Source of the DNA: an uncultured virus (IMG/VR IMGVR_UViG_3300045940_000149)
Taxonomy: Duplodnaviria; Heunggongvirae; Uroviricota; Caudoviricetes
IMG/VR virus record: IMGVR_UViG_3300045940_000149
Direction: 5' to 3' (one strand)
Length of the DNA: 64,000 nucleotides
Below the pieces are notes generated by a model. It was not told where the DNA came from, did no database searches, and saw only the letters and a list, made by a program, of their open reading frames with translations. Positions 5,534-16,610 of this stretch are shown here, one piece after another. Numbering within the stretch: position 1 is the first letter of the stretch; the number at the start of each line of letters is the position of its first letter. A program made the position numbers and the translations under genes.

Positions 5534-6157
5534 ATGACCAGCGTCCAGATCAACGGAGAACGCTTTGGATCGCGCCTGCGTCGGCTGCGCGAAGCCCACA
5601 AGGCTTCCCAGCATGACCTCGCCAAGGAAGTCGGCTGCACCCGCGCGGCAATCAGCCAGTACGAGAACAATCAATACTTCCCGAACAAAGAAACGCTGGC
5701 GAAGATCCTGAACGTCTACGGCGCGACCTACGAATGGTTGGTCAATGGCCGTGGCCCACTACCGGAAATACTGGAGAGCGCCGCCAAGCTGGAGGTCGGC
5801 GTCGAGGCCACACCCGCCAAGCTGCGCTGGATCACCGGCAGGGACGTGAGCATCATCGTCGCCCCCAACACCATCGACCCGATCCTCGAAGGCGACGTGC
5901 TGTTTGTCGATATGGCCCAGCGGCAAATCAACGGGCAGGGCTGGTGGATTATCGAGATCAAGGAGACCGGACGCGTGGTCACCCGCGCCCGGCTCACCCA
6001 AACCGAGACCGGCGATGCCTCACTGCAGTTGGCCATCGCCGACAATTGGATCGTGCCCGCCGGTGCCGGGCGCACCGTCATCGGCCGAATCATCGGCATG
6101 TTCCGGGCGATCGACCAGTCGATGATGACTATCCACAGCCAAGCCAAGCCCCTGTGA
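5534..6157 (+). CDS. cI: CI-like XRE HTH repressor with degenerate S24-like C-terminal domain
   Basis: RLRRLREAHKASQHDLAKEVGCTRAAISQYE..YEWLVNG; PILEGDVLFVD..VIGRIIG. Confidence 0.75.
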   Translation: MTSVQINGERFGSRLRRLREAHKASQHDLAKEVGCTRAAISQYENNQYFPNKETLAKILNVYGATYEWLVNGRGPLPEILESAAKLEVGVEATPAKLRWITGRDVSIIVAPNTIDPILEGDVLFVDMAQRQINGQGWWIIEIKETGRVVTRARLTQTETGDASLQLAIADNWIVPAGAGRTVIGRIIGMFRAIDQSMMTIHSQAKPL

Positions 6158-6722
6158 ATTTTTTTTGACTGATCGATGACGGCCGGACCCATGGGTTCCG
6201 GCATGCAACCCGTTGTTTACGCCAACATTATACAAGTTGCCAACAGCAACTAACGCAACCCATTACCGCCGCAAGGTTCCATTAAGCACACCTTGACAGA
6301 ACCCCGTGGCGGGTTCAGTCTGGCGCGTCAAGTCGAAATCAACGGCAAGTTCATCGTTTTCGCAGCCCCGCCTGCGAGAACGGCCGGAAGCCATTCGGGC
6401 CTCCGGTGGCCCGGCGATGGGGCGCGAGGCTGGTCTGGATTACCGCGCGCCGCTGTCGCCGGGCTTTCGTTGTGTCTGTTATGTAAGAGTGGCTGACCAA
6501 TGCCAGCGTATCATCGGCCATTGCAGCAGCGCGAGCACGCCCGGCGGACCTTCTCGCGCGCCTCCGAAGCCCAGCCGCACGACGTGTGGACCGCGACCTC
6601 CGATCGCGAAGAGCTGGTCGAGATCACCGACAAATTCCTGAAGCGGCTGAGCGCCGAGCGCTGCCCGGCGATCGTCGAGCGCGAGCGACGAAGGAAGGCA
6701 TCATAGAAGGAGATCCAATCCG

Positions 6723-7559
6723 ATGACGACGTTCGACTCCGTTGCTGAGCCAGCCACCATTGAACCGCCACCGGTGCGCCGCAGCCGAAAAAAGTCAAAA
6801 CCAGATCCTGTTTTCGAGCTGCTGAACAGTCACGCCCACCGGGAATTCATGGAGATCGACAAGCGCATGCTGCTTGTGCCGGTCGAGGACTACCAACGCA
6901 ACGAAGCCGATGGACGGATCTCAACCGAAATTGCCATGCACTACGACCTTGTTGCGTTCTCTTGTCTGCTGGTCATCAAGCGGACGAACGGTGATCTGAT
7001 GGTTGCCGATGGCGGTACGCGCCTGTCCGGAGCACTGAAGCGATCGGACATCACGACTGTGCCGTGCTTGGTATTTTCCGGTCTCACCGAAAAAGAAGAA
7101 GCCGATGTATTCCTGCGCATCAACAACAACCGACGCCGCCTGCAGGTCGAGCAGTTGCATCACGCCGAGTTATTTTCCGATCACGATCTTGCGATACGGT
7201 CACAGCGATTGATCGACCGTCTGCGCAATCACGGGATCGGGTTCGACTCGTTGTCCGGCATGCGATACTGCGTGCGATCGAATATGTCCGCGATCGACAC
7301 GGTCGTCATGATCCTGACTCAGACCATCACCGATCGGCACGTTACCGCACGGGTGATGAAAGGGCTGTTCACCTTGGAAGTCACCATGCGTCGCCAAGAC
7401 AAGACGCTGGCCAAGCGTTCGACAATGAACCGGATCGCCAATACGTTCGGGACGTTCGATGCGGTAGTCAACGCCGTGATCAAACCTCGCACCGCCGGAC
7501 ACGGTGCCGATATGGCCAAAGCGCTGGCTAAGACGCTGCGCATTACCGGAGTGTTCTGA
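6723..7559 (+). CDS. ParB/Srx-like protein (DUF6551-like)
   Basis: DYQR..VADGGTRL..VPCLVF..EEADVFLRIN. Confidence 0.55.
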   Translation: MTTFDSVAEPATIEPPPVRRSRKKSKPDPVFELLNSHAHREFMEIDKRMLLVPVEDYQRNEADGRISTEIAMHYDLVAFSCLLVIKRTNGDLMVADGGTRLSGALKRSDITTVPCLVFSGLTEKEEADVFLRINNNRRRLQVEQLHHAELFSDHDLAIRSQRLIDRLRNHGIGFDSLSGMRYCVRSNMSAIDTVVMILTQTITDRHVTARVMKGLFTLEVTMRRQDKTLAKRSTMNRIANTFGTFDAVVNAVIKPRTAGHGADMAKALAKTLRITGVF

Positions 7560-8260
7560 TGCAGTGCGAGCGGACCATCGATATCAAAGTGCATTCTGTC
7601 AGTTGCAGCGACGAGGATCGTCACCTGCCGCCGACCAAGGAAGCAATCGAAGCGATGAAAGAGTCGCTGACAGCGCACGGCCAGATTCTACCGATCGGTG
7701 TCTATCCAGTTGCCCGCAACAGCTATCGGCTGATCGTCGGCGCGACCAGATTCCGTGCGGCTTCCGAACTAGGATGGGAGAACATCCGCGCTTCCATCTG
7801 GATCGGCACTACGCTCGAATTCCAATTGTATGAGCTGGTCGAAAACGTCAATCGTCGCGAGCTGACCGGCAAACAACGCAGGGAAATGCGTGCCAAGATC
7901 AAGGATCTTCAACGCCAGCGGCTCGCTAATGTCGAACCGTCGAAGGGCGGACGTGGACATAGGGGTGGAGTGAGCGAGGCGGCAAGGCAAGCCGGTGTTT
8001 CTGAAACAACTGCCCGACGCCGTAGAACCGAAACACAGACCGAAACCAAACCTCGCCAGAATACAACGAGTGGCGAGGTTTCCGCCGTCGCCAAGTCACG
8101 ACAACAAAGGGAACAAAAGATTACATCCAGTCTGCCGATCGAGGAATTCAGTCGCTTCAAAGCCCTATGCGACCAGCTCAAGCTGAATATTGCTGATGGA
8201 GTTCGTTATTGCATTCGCGCCGAGCTTGATCATCGCATCCCACGGCAAGCTGCAGAATGA
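7559..8260 (+). CDS. ParB-like protein with HTH
   Basis: HGQILPIGV..YRLIVGATRFRA..ELVENVNRRELT; VSEAARQAGVSETTARR. Confidence 0.7.
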   Translation: MQCERTIDIKVHSVSCSDEDRHLPPTKEAIEAMKESLTAHGQILPIGVYPVARNSYRLIVGATRFRAASELGWENIRASIWIGTTLEFQLYELVENVNRRELTGKQRREMRAKIKDLQRQRLANVEPSKGGRGHRGGVSEAARQAGVSETTARRRRTETQTETKPRQNTTSGEVSAVAKSRQQREQKITSSLPIEEFSRFKALCDQLKLNIADGVRYCIRAELDHRIPRQAAE

Positions 8261-9204
8261 GCAAACGTCGCCACCGTCCCAAGATCGAGAAGCGCCCGAT
8301 CGTGTCGCGGGACGAGTGGCTGGCGTGGCACAAGCAGGACATCACTGCCAGCGTGGTCTCGGCCTTGTGGGGGCTGCATCCGCGCGAGACCGCCGCCGGA
8401 CTGTGGGCCAAGCTCACCGGCGTCGATCTCGGACCGGACGACGAGAACTCCGAGCTGCTGGAGCGCGGTCAGGATCTCGAAGTGGTGGTCGGCCGGAAAT
8501 TCCTGCACCGCCACCCCGGCTGGAAGGTGTTCGCCGCCAAGCACTACTACCGGATCGCAGCGCTGCGTCTCGGCGCGACCCCGGACTTCCACGTGATCAA
8601 GCCGGACGGGAAGAAGGGCGTGCTGCAGGCCAAGACCGTGAACCCGAGCACCTTCCGCACCAAGTGGACAGACGAGACGCCCCCGATGTGGATCATGCTG
8701 CAGACCCTGACCGAGATGATGCTGACCAGAAGCGAATTCGGGATCATCGCAGCGCTGGAGATCGGCGACTTCCGCTACCGGCTGCACACCTACGAAGTGC
8801 CGCGGCACGAAGGGGCCGAGCGCCGGATCGAGGACGCGGTGCGCGAGTTCTGGCTGCACGTCGATGCAGGCAACGAGCCAGTGATCGACTACCAGCGCGA
8901 TAGCGCATTGATCGCCGCCATGTACCCGCGGCATGCGCCCGACAAGATCGCCGACCTGCGCTACGACAACTCGCTGCCCGGCCTGCTCGACGAGCGCGAG
9001 GCGTTGAAGGCCACGCTCGACCGCGCCGGTGAGCGCAAGGATGAGATCGATACCGAGCTGAAGGCCAAGATGAAGGACGCCGAGATCGCGCTGGTCAACG
9101 GCTGGCGGATCTCCAACAAGACCATCGACAAGAAGGAACACACCGTCAGGGCAACCAGCTATCGGCAGTTGCGGGTGGTGCGCGAGCAGGGAGAAGCAGC
9201 GTGA
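8257..9204 (+). CDS. YqaJ/lambda-Exo-like exonuclease
   Basis: EWLAWHKQDITAS, ERGQDLE, LGATPDF, LQAKT. Confidence 0.8.
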   Translation: MSKRRHRPKIEKRPIVSRDEWLAWHKQDITASVVSALWGLHPRETAAGLWAKLTGVDLGPDDENSELLERGQDLEVVVGRKFLHRHPGWKVFAAKHYYRIAALRLGATPDFHVIKPDGKKGVLQAKTVNPSTFRTKWTDETPPMWIMLQTLTEMMLTRSEFGIIAALEIGDFRYRLHTYEVPRHEGAERRIEDAVREFWLHVDAGNEPVIDYQRDSALIAAMYPRHAPDKIADLRYDNSLPGLLDEREALKATLDRAGERKDEIDTELKAKMKDAEIALVNGWRISNKTIDKKEHTVRATSYRQLRVVREQGEAA

Positions 9205-9615
9205 GAGCGATCGACAAGCTGCATTGCGTTCAGCGTGAGCTGCGCTGGCGGTACAAGGTGTTCCCCAAGCGCGTCAACGACAAAAAGATGACGCAGGCGC
9301 AAGCCGACCGCGAGATCAAGCTGATGGAAGAGATCGCCGCCGACTATCGCAAACAGGTCGAGGAAGAGACCCCGGGGTTGCCGGTATGAGCAAGGACGAT
9401 CCCCGCTACGGCCCGCAGATCGTGCCCGGCCGCGCCACCCGGATCGGCGTCGCATACTGCGGAGGCCCGGAATGCGGACTGCCGCACATCGTGCTCTACG
9501 ACGAGAACGGGCACGGTTACGCCGACGCCGTCATCGACGAGGCGATCATGCGCTCGCTGGTCAAGGAGCTGGAGAAAGCATTCGAGCGCGGACTGAAACA
9601 CTGAGAGAGGTCAGT

Positions 9616-10653
9616 ATGAGTACGCAGGAAATCACCGTTGTCAACGCGGGCGCAATCAAGGCACTGCGCGAAAATCTCCACAAGATGACAGACCAGTTTC
9701 GGTTTGCTCTGCCCGCGCACATCCCGCCCGAGCGGTTCATTCGGGTCGTGCTCACCGCGGTGCAGAACAATCCGAAACTGCTCAAGTGCTCGCACCAGAG
9801 CCTGTTCAACGCATGCATGAAGGCGGCACAGGACGGCTTGCTGCCGGACGGTCGCGAGGGTGCGATCGTGCCCTATGGCGACGACGGTCCAGATCAGGCG
9901 CAGTGGCTCCCGATGGTGTACGGCATCCGCAAGAAGGTGAGGAATTCCGGCGCGCTGTCCGATTGGAATTGTCAGGTCGTGCAGGAAGGTGACGCGTTCG
10001 ATTATCAGCTCGGCGATTCGCCCTACATCCATCACAAGCCTGCAGCAAAGGGTGGCCGCACGCGTCCGGTGCTGTTCGCTTACTCGGTGGCGAAGTTCCC
10101 CGATGGCTCGCTCAGTCGCGAGGTCATGAACATCGACCAGATCCGCGACATCCAGAGCAAGAGCAAGGCCAAGCGCGGACCGTGGAGCGATCCCATTTTT
10201 TTCCCTGAAATGTGCCGCAAGACGGTGGCCAAGCTGCACGCCAAGCAGCTCCCCATGTCCACCGATCTCGATCGCCTGCTCCACCGCGACGACGAGCTGT
10301 ACGATCTCAAGGCCGCCAAGGCCGATCGCCGCGACGCCAAACCGCCGTCGTCGGTGGCCGAGATGTTCGACAGCTTCGCCGCCGGTGCCGACGAGTCGGA
10401 CGAGCCCAAGAAGATCGAGGAAGCGCCGCCCAAGGAAGTGCCCAAGGCGGAAGCGCCGAAAGAAGCTGCTGAGCCGGAAGCCAAGGCCGCAGAGCCGGTC
10501 GAGCCGACCGACGCCGAACTCGCCGCCTACCAAGCTGGGACCGACGCCCGCCGCCGGGGCGTCCTTCGCAAGGCGCTGCCCGGCGATCTGCGCACGGCGG
10601 ACAAGACACGCGAGGCGCTGGCGTGGACCAAGGGCTGGGACGAGGCGCAATGA
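9616..10653 (+). CDS. recT: RecT single-strand annealing protein
   Basis: ALPAHIPPERFIRV..AAQDGLLPDGREGAIVPY..EMCRKTV. Confidence 0.88.
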   Translation: MSTQEITVVNAGAIKALRENLHKMTDQFRFALPAHIPPERFIRVVLTAVQNNPKLLKCSHQSLFNACMKAAQDGLLPDGREGAIVPYGDDGPDQAQWLPMVYGIRKKVRNSGALSDWNCQVVQEGDAFDYQLGDSPYIHHKPAAKGGRTRPVLFAYSVAKFPDGSLSREVMNIDQIRDIQSKSKAKRGPWSDPIFFPEMCRKTVAKLHAKQLPMSTDLDRLLHRDDELYDLKAAKADRRDAKPPSSVAEMFDSFAAGADESDEPKKIEEAPPKEVPKAEAPKEAAEPEAKAAEPVEPTDAELAAYQAGTDARRRGVLRKALPGDLRTADKTREALAWTKGWDEAQ

Positions 10654-10661
10654 TGCCGAAC

Positions 10662-11179
10662 GCGGGCCGCCTTGCACTGCTTGAAGCCCATGGGACGAGT
10701 GCTGCCCGCTGGAGCCCGGCCGGTCAGCCATTGAAAGCCAGCGGTCGCGTGCCGGGCTCACTTCTTGCGGTCGCCAGAAAATCTATGAAGCCCAAGGCGT
10801 CCCTGCGACCGCGGAGCCCGGCCATCACGTCGATGACATCCGAGTCGCCGCTGCCGGGCTCACCCATTCCCGTTGCGGTCGCCGCACATCGCTTGAAGCC
10901 CCTGTGGCAAATGCGACCGCCGAGCCCGGCCATCCGCGGGGTGAAACCCAAACAAGAATTGCCGGGCTCACTCTTCACCAATGCGGTCGCCATTCCGCCC
11001 TTGAAGCCCATTCCGCCAGTGCGACCGCGGAGCCCGGCCGGAAGCTCGATGAAACCCACATCACGATTGCCGGGCTCACCCGTTGCGGTCGCCACGCGCA
11101 GGCTGAAGCCCATGGAGCTGGTGCGACCGCGGAGCCCGGCCAGAGCTGCGTTGAACCCCACAGATGGCGTGCCGGGCTC
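10662..11179 (+). ncRNA. TIGR-like guide array 1 (10 units, first degenerate)
   Basis: Alternating TGCGGTCGC-CA-N9-TGANNNCCN-N9-TGCGACCGC and GAGCCCGGC-CA-N9-TGANNNCCN-N9-TGCCGGGCTC units. Confidence 0.88.
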
Positions 11180-11199
11180 ACCCTTTCTGCGAGGCCGAC

Positions 11200-11814
11200 A
11201 TGAAAGCTGACCTGCGAACGATCGCCGCCGACCTGTTGCGGACGCACAAGACGATTGCCGCTGCCGCCGCCGAGCTGGTGACGATGATGATGGCGGACGA
11301 CAAGTTGCAGCTCGCAGTCGCCACCGAGTTCTTGCGCAGTCTCGCCAACACCAAGTCCGCCCCGCATGTGGTTCGCTCCCGCCGCCGTCCTGGTCCGCAC
11401 AAGAGCCCCAAGCAACCGACCGCGGCACAGAAGGCAGGCGCGCTGCGGGCCGAGAAGCAGTACATCGCCTCAATCTTCGACCACCGCCTGCGCGGCGGCC
11501 AGCGGCTCGGTCAGATCCGGGTGCATGAGCTGCGAGCCATCGCCGAAGCGAGCGCCAGCACCGCGACCAGCTTCCTCACCCGCGGCTACGAGGACGCGGT
11601 GGAAGCCATCGCCTGCACGCGCATGACGCAGCACTGCGTCGCCGTCGATCCGTTCGCGCTGGTCAAGGACGTGATCAAGGCGACGATCGCCAAGGACATC
11701 TTCGAGCAAGCAAAGATCGATGCCGCCGAAGTGATCCGCGACGGGTCCGCCAAGCTGGCACGCGACCTGATCGCGCGGGCGCAGAAGCCCGAGCCGCCAC
11801 AGGTCACACAATGA
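11200..11814 (+). CDS. Hypothetical 204-aa protein between arrays 1 and 2
   Basis: GAGG RBS then ATG at 11200; no recognised domain. Confidence 0.7.
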   Translation: MKADLRTIAADLLRTHKTIAAAAAELVTMMMADDKLQLAVATEFLRSLANTKSAPHVVRSRRRPGPHKSPKQPTAAQKAGALRAEKQYIASIFDHRLRGGQRLGQIRVHELRAIAEASASTATSFLTRGYEDAVEAIACTRMTQHCVAVDPFALVKDVIKATIAKDIFEQAKIDAAEVIRDGSAKLARDLIARAQKPEPPQVTQ

Positions 11815-11815
11815 T

Positions 11816-12116
11816 TGCGGTCGCCAGCACATCGCTGAAAACCACCAGCTCAGTGCGACCGCCGAGCCCGGCCGAAGCCGTTGTGAAGCCCACCAACAGA
11901 CTGCCGGGCTCACCTATTGCGGTCGCCACCACTGCTCTGAAGCCCAAGGGACGCGTGCGACCGCCGAGCCCGGCCAATTTCCATATGAAACCCGAACCGG
12001 ACTTGCCGGGCTCACCCCTTTGCGGTCGCCACTTGAGGCTTGAAGCCCATGATCTCAATGCGACCGCGGAGCCCGGCCATTCGATGAATGAAACCCAAGC
12101 CGGGCTTGCCGGGCTC
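11816..12116 (+). ncRNA. TIGR-like guide array 2 (6 units)
   Basis: Same alternating units with 9-nt spacers. Confidence 0.9.
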
Positions 12117-12133
12117 GCCCTTCTGGAGGCCAC

Positions 12134-12997
12134 ATGACCGCCATCACTGACACCATCGCTGAAATGCGCCGCCATCATCGCCGCCGCCGGTTTGCGATGA
12201 AGGAGCAGCAGCGATCGGAACGGTCGCTCGAATCGTTCCTGCGCGAGAACGCGACCGACTGGTCGCCGAGCATGAGCGAGGCCGAGCGCGAAATCAGGAA
12301 CAAGATGGTTCACGCCATCATCAAGACCGTCCGCGACGGCGACACCGCCTCCCCGTTCGCCGACATGGTGCTGATGAGCGATCAGAGCCGCGAGCCGTGG
12401 ACGCGCACACGCGACGTGTCGGAGAAGGCCATGGGCAAGCTGGCGATGACCCTGCCGGTCTATCCATGGATCGAATCGATCCGCGGTGCCGGTGCGCTGG
12501 GTCTCGCCACCATCGTCGCCGAGACCGGTGATCTCGCCAACTATCCCAACCCCGCCAAGGTCTGGTCGCGGCTCGGCTTCGCACCCTACGACGGCTTCGC
12601 CGGTTCGAGCTGGAAGAGGGAGACGTGGCGTCCGCGGGCGCTAACGAAGGAAGAGTGGATCGAGCACCCGTTCTCCGGATCTCGGTACGCGCTCATGCAC
12701 CAGATCGCGGTCTGGCTGGTCAATGCGCAATGGATCGGCAAGGCCAAGAGCGAGAGCGGCGAAGGTGAGCCCAACGGTCCCTACGGCGATGTGTATGCCG
12801 CCCGGCGCAAGCACGCGATGAAGACGCACGCCGATTGGACGGACGGACACCGCCGAATGGATGCTTTGCGTATAACGATGAAGGCGTTCCTCAAGGATCT
12901 TTGGGTCGAGTGGCACCGCGCGGCCGAACAGGTTGCGGAGCCGCCGCCGAAGAAGAAGCGCTCGCGCAAGTCGGACGAGCCGCGCATTGGAGCGTGA
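12134..12997 (+). CDS. tasA: IS110/Nop-domain RNA-binding protein without nuclease domain (TasA-like)
   Basis: WIESIRGAGALGLATIVAETGDLANYPNPAKVWSRLGFAP resembles the IS110 Transposase_20/Nop region; no DEDD RuvC or HNH seen; flanked by dual-spacer arrays. Confidence 0.8.
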   Translation: MTAITDTIAEMRRHHRRRRFAMKEQQRSERSLESFLRENATDWSPSMSEAEREIRNKMVHAIIKTVRDGDTASPFADMVLMSDQSREPWTRTRDVSEKAMGKLAMTLPVYPWIESIRGAGALGLATIVAETGDLANYPNPAKVWSRLGFAPYDGFAGSSWKRETWRPRALTKEEWIEHPFSGSRYALMHQIAVWLVNAQWIGKAKSESGEGEPNGPYGDVYAARRKHAMKTHADWTDGHRRMDALRITMKAFLKDLWVEWHRAAEQVAEPPPKKKRSRKSDEPRIGA

Positions 12998-13004
12998 TCA
13001 TGAA

Positions 13005-13208
13005 TGCGGTCGCCACCACTGCTCTGAAGCCCACCGACTTCGTGCGACCGCGGAGCCCGGCCATCGGCGGCCTGATGCCCTATGAAACCCTGCCGGGCTC
13101 ACCCTTCCTGTTTGCGGTCGCCAGTAGATCGTTGAAGACCGTCTTGGTCGTGCGACCGCCGAGCCCGGCCAACCCGTGGTTGATATCCAGAAAACGTATG
13201 CCGGGCTC
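13005..13208 (+). ncRNA. TIGR-like guide array 3 (4 units)
   Basis: Same alternating units. Confidence 0.88.
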
Positions 13209-13223
13209 ACTTTTCCTAGGGGG

Positions 13224-13610
13224 ATGAACATGCGTACGTACCACGGTTGGCGCGACGCCGACCACACTGCCAAGGTGATCGTGATCGAGGACAGCGGGAA
13301 GGAACACCCGCTCAATCTTCGACTGGATCTGCGCAATCACAGTCCCACCGGCCCGGAGTGGGGTTACGCCGGATCGGGACCGGCGCAGCTCGCGCTCGCC
13401 ATCCTGTGCGATGCGCTGGGAGATGACGAGCGCGCCCAGCGGCTCTACCAGATGTTCAAGTTTAAGGTGATCGCTGGTCTCGACCGCGATCAACCATGGA
13501 CGATGAAGGCGCATGCCGTGAGGATGATGGCCCACATCATCGAGCAGGAACGCAACAGCCATGAGCCATTCAGACACGCGCGGTCGCAGGCGGATCGAGA
13601 TAGCGCATGA
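13224..13610 (+). CDS. DUF6166-like protein
   Basis: RNHSPTGPEWGYAGSGPAQLALAIL. Confidence 0.7.
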   Translation: MNMRTYHGWRDADHTAKVIVIEDSGKEHPLNLRLDLRNHSPTGPEWGYAGSGPAQLALAILCDALGDDERAQRLYQMFKFKVIAGLDRDQPWTMKAHAVRMMAHIIEQERNSHEPFRHARSQADRDSA

Positions 13611-16610
13611 GATTGGAGTGACGTTCCACGATGGATCACCGCACATCGTCATGCGCGATGCCAAGGGCGAAATCTTTGCGGTGGCCATTCTCGAACCGCC
13701 GCACCTGATCGAGATGCTGCAAATACTGATCAAAGCGTCTCACCAGATCCTCGACAACGAAATGCAGAAACGAACCGGAAATCGCCAACGATGCAGTGAA
13801 CGGGGAGAACGACCAATGGGGTTCGCCATGGCCTATGGGATCTGTGTGTGTTGTGGCCAGACATTCGGCTTCAATCCGGTGCGGGTGCCGAGCTGCCGGA
13901 TCAACGGCAACCGCGAGCCGATCTGCGGGATCTGTATTCCGCAGATCAACATTCGCCGCCGGGCCAAGGGGCTGGCCGAGATCATCCCGCTGCCGGACGC
14001 CTATCAAGCCTGCGAGGAATCGGAGCTGCTGATCCTATGAGCATTCCGTGGCGACGGCCGCTCGCGCTCACGCTTAACGCGGACAGTGCGAGAGTCCTTT
14101 GGGCGATGGCGTGGGAGTCAATCAAGCCGACTCCGCTTTGGTTTTGGGAATTGCCATGACCGACCTGACCCCGCGCGAACTGGACCTGTCCGAGCCGGTG
14201 GCGGTTGTCGTAGGTCGCCTGCGCGCCGATCTCGCGGGGGCGAGGAGCGAAATACAGCAGCTTCGGACGGCACTGCGGCGTTTGATAAACGACATCCACG
14301 AGTACGAGCGGGTCAACAATCTATCTCCCAATCCGCCGCGCATGGAATGCTGGGACAGCGTTTTAGAGGCTCGGCATATTCTCGCTGATGGGGACGGAGC
14401 GCCCAAGCCAACCGACCTGACCCCGCGCGAGCTGGACCTGCTGAAGTGGTTGGGCGAGAGCGAGTACAGCCAATATGGGGAATGCTACGGCAAGGATCTC
14501 GACACGCTGGTCGCCAAGAAGCTGGCGCAGATCCATCTGCCGGGAGAGCACCAGAACTTCATCGCCAACGACTTCGCCGGGACCAGAGGCATCATGTACC
14601 AAGCCGTGTCGCTCACCGAAAACGGGCGAGCGCTGCTGGTGGGGATCGAGGGATCTGACGAGTAACCAGTTGTGTGGAGTGCGTCATGTTGGATAGCCGC
14701 AAACTGCTCAAGCGCAAGGGCGACAGCGGACGGAACCAGCAAGTTTTCAAGGCACTGCAGTACGCCGACGAGGACGAGCGCCGCTACACCATCGAGGACA
14801 ACAAGCGCAATTACAGCCACCGCGGCAGCGAAGCGATGGCGCGGCGCGGTGACCATGACACCGCTGACGAAGCCGCCCGCTCGCTGTCGCGGGCCGAAGT
14901 GACCCGAATCGAAGGCGTGGTCGAGCGTGCGCTGCAGGCCCGGCGCTTCAGCGGCGGCACATGGGACGAGCTGGAAGGGCTTACCGGCCTACCCAAGGCC
15001 AGCATCAGCCCGCGGTTCAAGCCGCTGCGACGGCAACTGCGGATCTGCTTTGCGCTCGAACCGGATGTGGCCCAACCGGAGCTGGTATTCGGAGCAGCCC
15101 CCCGCGCTCTTGGGGATAAAGCGTCATGACTGACGCCAACCAATGTCCGACATGCGCGCTTCTGCGCGCCGAAAACGAGGCTCTTTTAGAGCGCATAGCG
15201 GAGCTTTATCGCGCGCAGAAAAGCCGAATATTGTCGGCGCGCTCCGCTGAATACAACGCACTCACCTCTAACGAGAGCAACAATGACTGACATTGAAGGC
15301 GACCAAAGCAAGCGACCGCCAGAATGCAACACCGCACAGCGACCAACGTCCTGTCCGCATATCAAATGCACGTACGAGGGCTACGACGGAGAGCGATGGA
15401 ATTGCAACACTTGTGGACAGTCCTTCTATCTCGACTACGACGAAATGCGATGACCGCACTCAAGCCCGACACGTACGAGCCAACGAAATGAAAACCGATC
15501 TGATGCGCTTCCGGGCCGACATCCCGCTGCTGCTGGAGATCGAGATCGACACGTCGCTGGAGGGCGTGCAGGCGCTGGAAGCGGTGATGCGAGCGTTCGA
15601 GAGCAAGGTGGCGACGGTCACGGTTCAACTGCCGCCGCGCACCGCCTTCGGAGCCCGCGGGATCACTGCCACGCTGAACGGCCGGGTTCGCTTGGAGAAG
15701 ATTGATGCCGATTGACGAAGGCCAGCTCGGCGACGCGCCGATCGAGCAGCGCTACCACGCGCTGATGAACGAGCTTGGCCGGTTCCTCGACAAGATGCTC
15801 AACGGCGAGCTGCCGGAACGCAAGCACGGCTTCGTCCTGATGATGTTCCCGTTCGAGGACACGCACGGTCACTGCAACTACATCTCGAACGCCCGGCGGT
15901 CCGATGTGCTGGTCATGCTCAAGAAGCAGGTGGAACGGTTCGAGGCGCAGAATGAGGTACGGCCTAGTTGATCCTGAACGCCGCAAGTTCGCGGTGGTGG
16001 ATTGTCCCACGATCGAGGACGCCTACGCCCGCGTCGGGCTGGCCGTGGGCGAGGTCGATCACGGCACGGTCTGCCGGTTGGATGGCGGCGGCTCGATCGG
16101 GATCATCGTCTTTCAGTATTCGTTCTACGTCGAGGTCGCCAAGCAGCACTACTTCGCGCTCGGCAGCAAGCTCTATGCCGGGGCCGCGGTGCTCTATCAG
16201 GCCAACCGGTACGGCCAGACCGCCCCGTACGCGACTGCCAATCCGCTGGCACCGCGCTGGTTCCGCAATGCAGCCGAGATCGAAGAAGCGATCCGCGCGG
16301 GCGAGATCACCCGGCCGCAGATCGTCCTGAACGGCAACCTGATCTGGCGCTGGCCGGAACCAAGGCGGCACTGAATGAGCGAGGTATTCCACTTCAACAC
16401 GGTGATCGCGCGGGTGTTCGAGCGCTCGCTGGCCAAGCGCGCGATCAAGGGGCCCAACTACGAGCACGATAAGAGCGACGTGGTGGTCGAGCGCGATCCC
16501 CCGCAATGGTACCTCCAGATCGGTGATGTGTCGTTCATGACCGGACCGGACAAGCCCGATTTCAAGGACGGCGATCTGGTGACGGTCACCATCAGGAAGC
16601 GTGAGAAGCC

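Follow-up and report, generated by a model that had tools for sequence, protein, structure and literature searches.

Three guide-RNA arrays and a tas gene in a phage recombination operon

The stretch of DNA analyzed here, which we call the window, spans 64,000 nucleotides (nt) at 62% G+C and comes from an uncultured virus of the Caudoviricetes (IMG/VR record IMGVR_UViG_3300045940_000149). At 10650-13227 it carries 20 stem-loop guide-RNA units (tigRNAs) in blocks of 10, 6 and 4, accompanied by a tas gene, and each block lies inside a stop-free open reading frame (ORF) that abuts its neighbors on both sides. The sequences of this locus and its relatives suggest that such arrays are probably kept as translatable frames.

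All features of the locus are co-oriented on the + strand. The row includes a gene for a protein with a ParB N-terminal domain (7559..8260; Pfam ParB_N, 1.4e-09), a gene for a YqaJ-type exonuclease (8257..9204; Pfam YqaJ, 3.6e-10) and the recombinase gene recT (9616..10653; Pfam RecT, 4e-35), whose stop codon is the TGA at 10651-10653. Next comes the array-1 ORF (10650..11210, 186 codons), with its 10 hairpin units at 10663-11178, followed by orf204 (11200..11814), which lies between arrays 1 and 2 and encodes 204 amino acids without a Pfam family match. The array-2 ORF (11811..12137, 108 codons; 6 units at 11817-12115) and the array-3 ORF (12994..13227, with a likely start at ATG 13000; 4 units at 13006-13207) stand on either side of tas (12134..12997), and a DUF6166 gene lies 3' of array 3 (13224..13610, starting at ATG 13224 or ATG 13230; Pfam DUF6166, 1.5e-27). 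We conclude that the three sub-arrays and tas are embedded in a phage recombination operon. At 6723-8260, 5' of the recombination genes, the ParB_N gene adjoins a second gene with a weak, below-cutoff match to DUF6551. This pair recalls the parB-like gene that is described in operons with tasA in the passages of Faure et al. 2025 (PMC12045711) cited here.

The units share one layout, in which an 8-9 base pair (bp) stem leads into CC-N10-TG, AAGC, a second CC-N10-TG and the closing stem, with box C/D-like letters on either side of two spacers of about 10 nt. The CC-N10-TG motif occurs twice in 20/20 units, with invariant columns C10, C11, T22, G23, C28, C29, T40 and G41, and two stem sequences, GCGGTCGC/GCGACCGC and GAGCCCGGC/GCCGGGCTC, take turns. 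When the 20 units are aligned, 97.2% of the stem cells are paired, compared to 28-44% in controls with slid partners, and 7/9 pairs have changes on both sides. A centroid fold of array 3 contains four hairpins. Palindromic stems, two spacers between box C and box D letters and a co-oriented tas gene alongside are the features by which we identify these as tigRNA arrays. The box letters also agree with the stem-loop motif set of TIGRFinder, given in the part of Xu et al. (bioRxiv 10.64898/2026.09.09.750476) that we cite as spacers of 8-12 nt, CCA, CGA, CTA or CAA for box C and TG or CG for box D. We additionally looked for a CUU at the stem base, a feature that marks the processing site, and in 7/10 pairs the second hairpin is followed by CTT within about 10 nt on its 3' side.

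The protein encoded between arrays 2 and 3 (287 amino acids) was modeled with AlphaFold (AF2) as a nearly all-helical fold with a pLDDT of 90. The 10 best Foldseek matches of this model are TasR or TasH chains (TIGR-TasR 9mty; TasH 21kl/9vzx/9w0x), with a probability of 1.00 and TM scores of 0.46-0.64, and the IS621 bridge recombinase comes after them. A profile of 43 Tas relatives matches the TasR entry 9mty in the PDB at 5.8e-05, and the sole Pfam match of the protein is to Transposase_20 HhH (3.1e-05). Judging from the predicted structure, the protein is a Tas, with the Nop-domain and coiled-coil fold shared by the solved Tas proteins. Neither the Pfam scan nor the AF2 model contains a RuvC or HNH nuclease domain, which makes this a Tas of the TasA type. 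In the sections of Xu et al. cited here, this type acts as an RNA-guided repressor.

Several features of the spacers deserve mention. In unit 7 of array 1 (10983-11028), both spacers begin with the same 8 letters, and because spacers A and B pair with opposite DNA strands, this points to an inverted-repeat, operator-like target. Unit 3 of array 2 (11919-11964) and unit 1 of array 3 (13006-13051) have an identical spacer A and different spacers B. Spacer positions in 58 related arrays are A-rich, with 49-56% G+C compared to 62% for the window, which may mean that they target DNA with a lower G+C content than that of the phage. In the rest of the 64-kb window, 0/20 spacer pairs matched with both halves within 40 nt of each other (at most 1 mismatch each), apart from one exception, a chance-like pair on the same strand, 31 nt apart. 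As the window yielded no further such match, we found no support for self-regulation of this phage stretch by its own guides.

Reading frames across the window arrays

A preliminary description of this DNA, made from the letters and a list of ORFs, had assigned a stop-free sense ORF to each array, and its coordinates for all three hold when compared with the sequence, the ORF list and our frame counts. In array 1, the frame of ATG 10650 is free of stops until TGA 11208-11210. This ATG overlaps the recT stop as ATGA and has GAGG 4 nt to its 5' side, and at the far end the ATG of orf204 at 11200 sits 8 nt before the array-ORF stop and is served by GAGG at 11191-11194 in the array's tail. The frame of array 2 runs without stops from ATG 11811 to TGA 12135-12137 and has ATGA overlaps at both ends, with the upstream stop at 11812-11814 and with the tas ATG at 12134, which GGAGG at 12125-12129 serves. 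In array 3, the frame of GTG 12994 is open up to TGA 13225-13227; this GTG and the tas stop (12995-12997) overlap, as do the array's own stop and ATG 13224. Shine-Dalgarno spacing favors ATG 13000 (GGAG 7 nt 5') over GTG 12994 and ATG 13230 over ATG 13224, so 2 of the 6 junctions may be 2-nt gaps instead of 4-nt overlaps. None of the three arrays belongs to the tas frame: the array-2 stop at 12135-12137 is in a different frame from tas, and the tas stop at 12995-12997 precedes array 3.

Each of the 20 units contains a TGA, formed by box D (TG) and the first base of the inter-spacer linker. The earlier observation that none of these 20 triplets is in the ORF frame was borne out, whereas its placement of them at the start of the loop was not, as they lie at the center of the 30-nt loop. 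Distances from TG to TG are 50, 54, 48, 60, 48, 60, 48, 54 and 48 nt in array 1, 48, 54, 48, 55 and 48 nt in array 2 and 48, 60 and 48 nt in array 3. A uniform unit spacing of 48 nt, as first proposed, therefore describes every pair except the first, which measures 50 nt and in which the TGA falls in the third frame, still outside that of the ORF. The same distances confirm the reported inter-pair linkers of 6, 12, 12 and 6 nt in array 1, 6 and 7 nt in array 2 and 12 nt in array 3, and at the single 7-nt linker the frame does switch to the other TGA-free phase. An 8/9-nt linker difference in array 2 thus puts its last pair in that phase.

Chance would leave all three window arrays open with a probability of 0.0002 under linker jitter of 0-2 nt, 0.016 under shuffling of spacer bases and 0.069 under spacer rotation. 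Other frames come close to being open: the second + frame of array 1 has 2 stops and one of its minus frames has 1, and one minus frame of array 2 has 0. Because such nearly open frames occur in DNA of 62% G+C, the window alone is only suggestive, and the weight of the argument rests on its relatives. Long minus-strand ORFs lie over all three arrays (10724-11473, 11804-12313 and 12998-13336, of 249, 169 and 112 amino acids), probably as a shadow of the constraints on the sense frames.

Many soil DNA runs and three metatranscriptome libraries contain the window stretch. Contigs assembled from two RNA libraries connect array 1 and orf204 (11018-11243), orf204 and array 2 (11522-11871), array 2 and tas (12056-12879), tas and array 3 (12863-13109) and array 3 and the DUF6166 gene (13124-13543), which fits co-transcription. 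This RNA cover consists of assembled contigs only, and its uncovered parts and depth differences are uninformative. At 6000-16000 there are no promoter-like sites on the + strand, and terminator-like sites are not above shuffles. One strain variant, a single contig from one soil DNA run at 11757-11951, has a 3-nt deletion at 11815, at the start of array 2, and substitutions concentrated in spacers and linkers. Its array frame stays stop-free, an anecdote from this one contig.

Frame preservation in related arrays

We assembled related loci through their Tas proteins. A search with the single protein gave 0 relatives in genome contigs and 2 in viral contigs and was superseded by searches with a profile of Tas homologues, which recovered 105 loci from metagenome, viral and genome collections; with 2 from the single-protein search, the set comprises 107. 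Our unit detector combines the motif with the stem, recovers 20/20 window units and makes 2 false matches per strand in 64 kb. A generic detector of hairpin clusters was dropped, as it produced too many false clusters in GC-rich DNA. Across the 107 loci, we detected 1218 units on the tas strand versus 33 on the opposite strand, and an independent covariance model gave 70 matches, all of them at units that the detector had also called. Removal of loci with at least 30% identical units in common left 71 loci, which hold 742 units in 168 arrays and in which Tas is 28-80% identical to that of the window (median 58%). Openness was tested on the 87 non-redundant arrays of at least 4 units. At L054 4001-4775, the locus of the closest Tas relative (80% identity in the best segment), tas is split over two frames and the 10-unit array is not open. 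Either the locus has decayed or its assembly contains indel errors, so it is not a clean counter-example, yet we kept it in all counts.

The preliminary description had proposed that homologous arrays be examined for random linker phases and in-frame stops, and the outcome in the 71 loci favors its view. The length of two units, that is, a hairpin pair and its linker, is divisible by 3 in 291/406 cases, and the result is the same whether it is measured from stem starts, stem ends or box D. The histogram of these periods has peaks at 102, 105, 108, 111, 114 and 117 nt. If only distinct combinations of locus and period are counted, 99/177 are multiples of 3 (p = 6e-10). Of 127 distinct cases in which the first distance is not divisible by 3, 65 have a second distance that restores the multiple (p = 2.5e-5), as in the pairs 49+59, 49+62, 47+61, 51+63 and 52+65.

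A stop-free sense frame runs through 68/87 arrays, including 40/48 with 4-5 units, 24/26 with 6-9 units and 4/13 with at least 10. The number expected to be open is 41.4±3.0 when spacers are rotated by 1-2 nt, 29.1±4.0 when spacer bases are shuffled, 24.9±3.8 when linkers are lengthened at random by 0-2 nt and 12.9±3.0 when shuffling and jitter are combined. No replicate of any null reached 68 open arrays, and the maximum under rotation was 51. Runs of six consecutive units behave likewise, with 133/164 open compared to 28 expected. The longest open array that we saw (L083 1923-3248) is a 441-codon ORF composed solely of 24 tigRNA units, and its start lies 4 nt ahead of the stop that ends the ORF before it.

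For 49 arrays, the frame can be fixed independently of the spacers, since just one frame is open through their conserved parts. Stops that touch spacers number 20 in this frame compared to 42.5±5.8 expected (0/500 replicates as low), whereas the two other frames contain 101 compared to 99.8 expected. A comparable earlier test detected no depletion of stops on the antisense strand (15/43). Counts of stops by phase relative to box D alone were confounded by variable spacer lengths and have been superseded. Taken together, the mod-3 periods, the 68/87 open arrays and the halved number of in-frame spacer stops in relatives support the dual-coding function that was originally suggested for the window arrays.

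The borders of the open arrays resemble those of genes. Among 71 open arrays, window included, the array frame starts at position -1 of the stop of the upstream long frame (NTGA) in 25/45 determinable cases, and the next gene starts at -1 of the array stop in 26/49. Ordinary long frames in the same loci give 130/251 by the same measure, showing that arrays are punctuated in the same way as genes. Within the related open set, 17/68 arrays are in-frame extensions of tas, 9 of them N-terminal and 8 C-terminal, and the other 51 are separate from the tas frame.

The encoded peptides present a different picture. In 188 units the box-D T is the second base of a codon and in 144 the third, and 33/58 arrays mix both phases, as window array 2 does. 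Because the RNA motifs do not keep to one phase, the peptide repeat is not conserved. Among 2274 candidates, none is homologous to the array-1 peptide at E <= 1e-3, and this peptide belongs to no Pfam family. We conclude that the selected property is not a particular protein sequence.

Ribosome transit, rival explanations and known systems

We favor the reading that these arrays are kept as translatable frames because the passage of ribosomes through a coupled, polycistronic phage operon is selected, with the peptide as a by-product, and from the sequence comparisons we give it a probability of about 0.7. Across the relatives, the two-unit length is held to a multiple of 3 and spacers avoid in-frame stops, and array frames begin and end on the stop and start codons of their neighbors. 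The RNA contigs that bridge genes and arrays and the lack of + strand promoter-like sites at 6000-16000 also speak for this reading. In this scheme, ribosomes that finish the upstream gene could re-initiate, read across the array and pass on to the downstream gene, covering a long, structured and C-rich guide precursor (C 34.8%, G 28.7%) as they go. Guides would be excised from the same transcript, so that one RNA would serve as both message and guide precursor, and the repetitive Ala/Pro/Ser-rich peptide would be incidental. What the phage gains from transit we can only infer; the benefit may lie in polarity, coupling or timing. Ribosome cover might prevent premature Rho-type termination or decay, it might couple translation to downstream genes whose Shine-Dalgarno sequences lie in the array tails, or it might time the maturation of the guides.

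Might composition and chance produce the same pattern? Open frames are common at 62% G+C, and arrays that grow by duplication of whole units would inherit both period and openness without translational selection. This would account for the nearly open other frames and the long minus-strand ORFs over all three window arrays, for the window-only rotation null (P = 0.069) and for antisense frames that are often open too. Duplication alone, however, does not produce mod-3 peaks from 102 to 117 with compensating unit and linker lengths. Spacers differ among loci, yet their stops are depleted two-fold in one specific frame and are at expectation in the others, and 68/87 arrays are open where no rotation replicate exceeds 51. 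We consider chance largely refuted and assign it a very small probability. A historical explanation would place the origin of the arrays inside the coding sequence of tas, from which new stops and starts later separated them, leaving open frames as unused relics. The published cases do concern arrays inside tas, as far as the sections of Xu et al. cited here describe them, and the 17/68 open related arrays that remain N- or C-terminal tas extensions would fit such an origin. Relics would nonetheless drift to the null, whereas NTGA junctions persist at the rate of real genes; in-frame stops are depleted despite the turnover of spacers between loci; and arrays far from tas, beside recT, DUF6166 or other genes, are open as well. 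A purely historical origin thus appears improbable.

The open frames could also be genes for a repeat protein with a function of its own, one that is disordered, rich in Ala, Pro and Ser, carries variable inserts and is itself under selection. Start codons, plausible Shine-Dalgarno sequences and gene-like junctions are what such a protein would require, and 17/68 open related arrays do add to Tas in frame. Selection on the product is hard to reconcile with motifs that occur in both phases, often in the same array (33/58, and array 2 of the window), with the lack of a homologue at E <= 1e-3 among the 2274 candidates, and with spacer positions that show only the compositional skew expected from stop avoidance. 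We find this explanation quite improbable.

Other observations weigh against ribosome transit itself. Translation of the array frames is something that we infer from sequence, and GC-rich stems of 8-9 bp every ~50 nt would hinder ribosomes. The RNA-library contigs are strandless and may include DNA carry-over, and common ancestry of the related loci makes architecture counts less than fully independent. As many as 19/87 arrays are not open, which is true of 9/13 arrays with 10 units or more, and the broken array of L046 has 22 units whose periods are random mod 3 beside an intact tas. A gene lies 3' of broken arrays as often (15/18) as of open ones (52/63), which implies that transit is not essential for downstream expression. 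Antisense frames are open in 57/87 arrays, compared to 41.3±3.0 under the rotation null, and part of the signal is therefore strand-symmetric, arising from the period, or a by-product of composition by codon position.

Some details bear on these points. The composition of the arrays by codon position includes T at position 1 with a frequency of 0.153 and A at position 3 with 0.22. The broken array of L089 is tiled by two long ORFs. Broken arrays are explained neither by position relative to tas, as 41/50 arrays upstream and 27/37 downstream of it are open, nor, from the counts above, by the presence of a downstream gene.

A more tentative proposal extends ribosome transit to guide biogenesis, with passing ribosomes melting each hairpin in turn and thereby sorting transcript copies into message and guides. 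Although we consider this unlikely, it would have several consequences. Each copy of the transcript would either serve as message for the downstream genes or be folded, bound by Tas and cut into guides, and guide dosage would be set against expression of the operon. The stop-free rule would act as a filter on the spacers that the system can carry. The parts of Xu et al. cited here describe a branch of Tas in packed viral genomes without room for an array; if translation does participate in biogenesis, such "array-less" lineages in dense viral genomes may conceal guides within annotated ORFs.

Arrays of guide RNAs are usually regarded as non-coding, while those of this phage TIGR clade follow two constraints of a coding type, a mod-3 period and the avoidance of in-frame stops in spacers. 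Spacer content is thus constrained, which bears on both spacer acquisition and target prediction. Array finders limited to intergenic regions will miss such arrays, and gene callers will report spurious repeat "proteins" in their place. Ribosome transit would also be a testable answer to the problem of polarity on a guide precursor that is long, structured and internal to an operon, and one different from the antitermination of CRISPR arrays.

Those arrays are reportedly protected from Rho termination by boxA/Nus antitermination. By analogy, a long untranslated guide array in either setting would face premature Rho-dependent termination and need a device against it. In the CRISPR case the device is an RNA element that modifies RNA polymerase, unlike the translation of the array itself that we propose here, and we draw the parallel as an analogy only. 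The junctions resemble those of overlapping operon genes with translational coupling, as treated in the cited portion of a review (PMC12548453), in that array ORFs have NTGA overlaps on both sides, as frequently as ordinary genes of these phages do. Unlike ordinary coupled genes, the "gene" that is coupled here is a guide-RNA array without a conserved product sequence.

Among TIGR systems, the stem-loop arrays of Faure et al. have the same layout as the window units, and the window locus is comparable to the TasA array of a Peromyscus leucopus gut contig, as described in the passages of PMC12045711 cited here. Both have a nuclease-less TasA, hairpins with two spacers of 8-12 nt and box C/D letters, three sub-arrays and a parB-like neighbor. 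The sub-arrays of the gut contig are about 450 nt of intergenic sequence apart, whereas in the window the codons of genes and arrays overlap where the two meet, and the arrays themselves are open.

The closest precedent is that of Xu et al., where, in the sections cited here, the coding sequence of tas can contain stem-loop arrays and keep its frame, which may link maturation to translation of Tas. Those sections contain no mod-3 period test, no test of stop avoidance in spacers and no free-standing array ORFs, and in the portions of the TIGR literature considered here, including Xu, Faure and Guan et al., we found neither 3-periodicity nor spacer stop avoidance described, nor any coupling of free-standing array ORFs to other genes. 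To the extent that these sources cover the subject, our findings are partly known, as regards arrays within tas, while the free-standing coupled array ORFs that make up 51/68 open arrays we did not find in print. Like the intragenic tigRNAs of Xu et al., the units that we describe occupy an undisrupted reading frame, and in 17/68 open related arrays they extend tas itself. Unlike the cases in the cited sections, the window arrays lie outside tas, have starts and stops of their own and are coupled to recT, orf204, tas and DUF6166.

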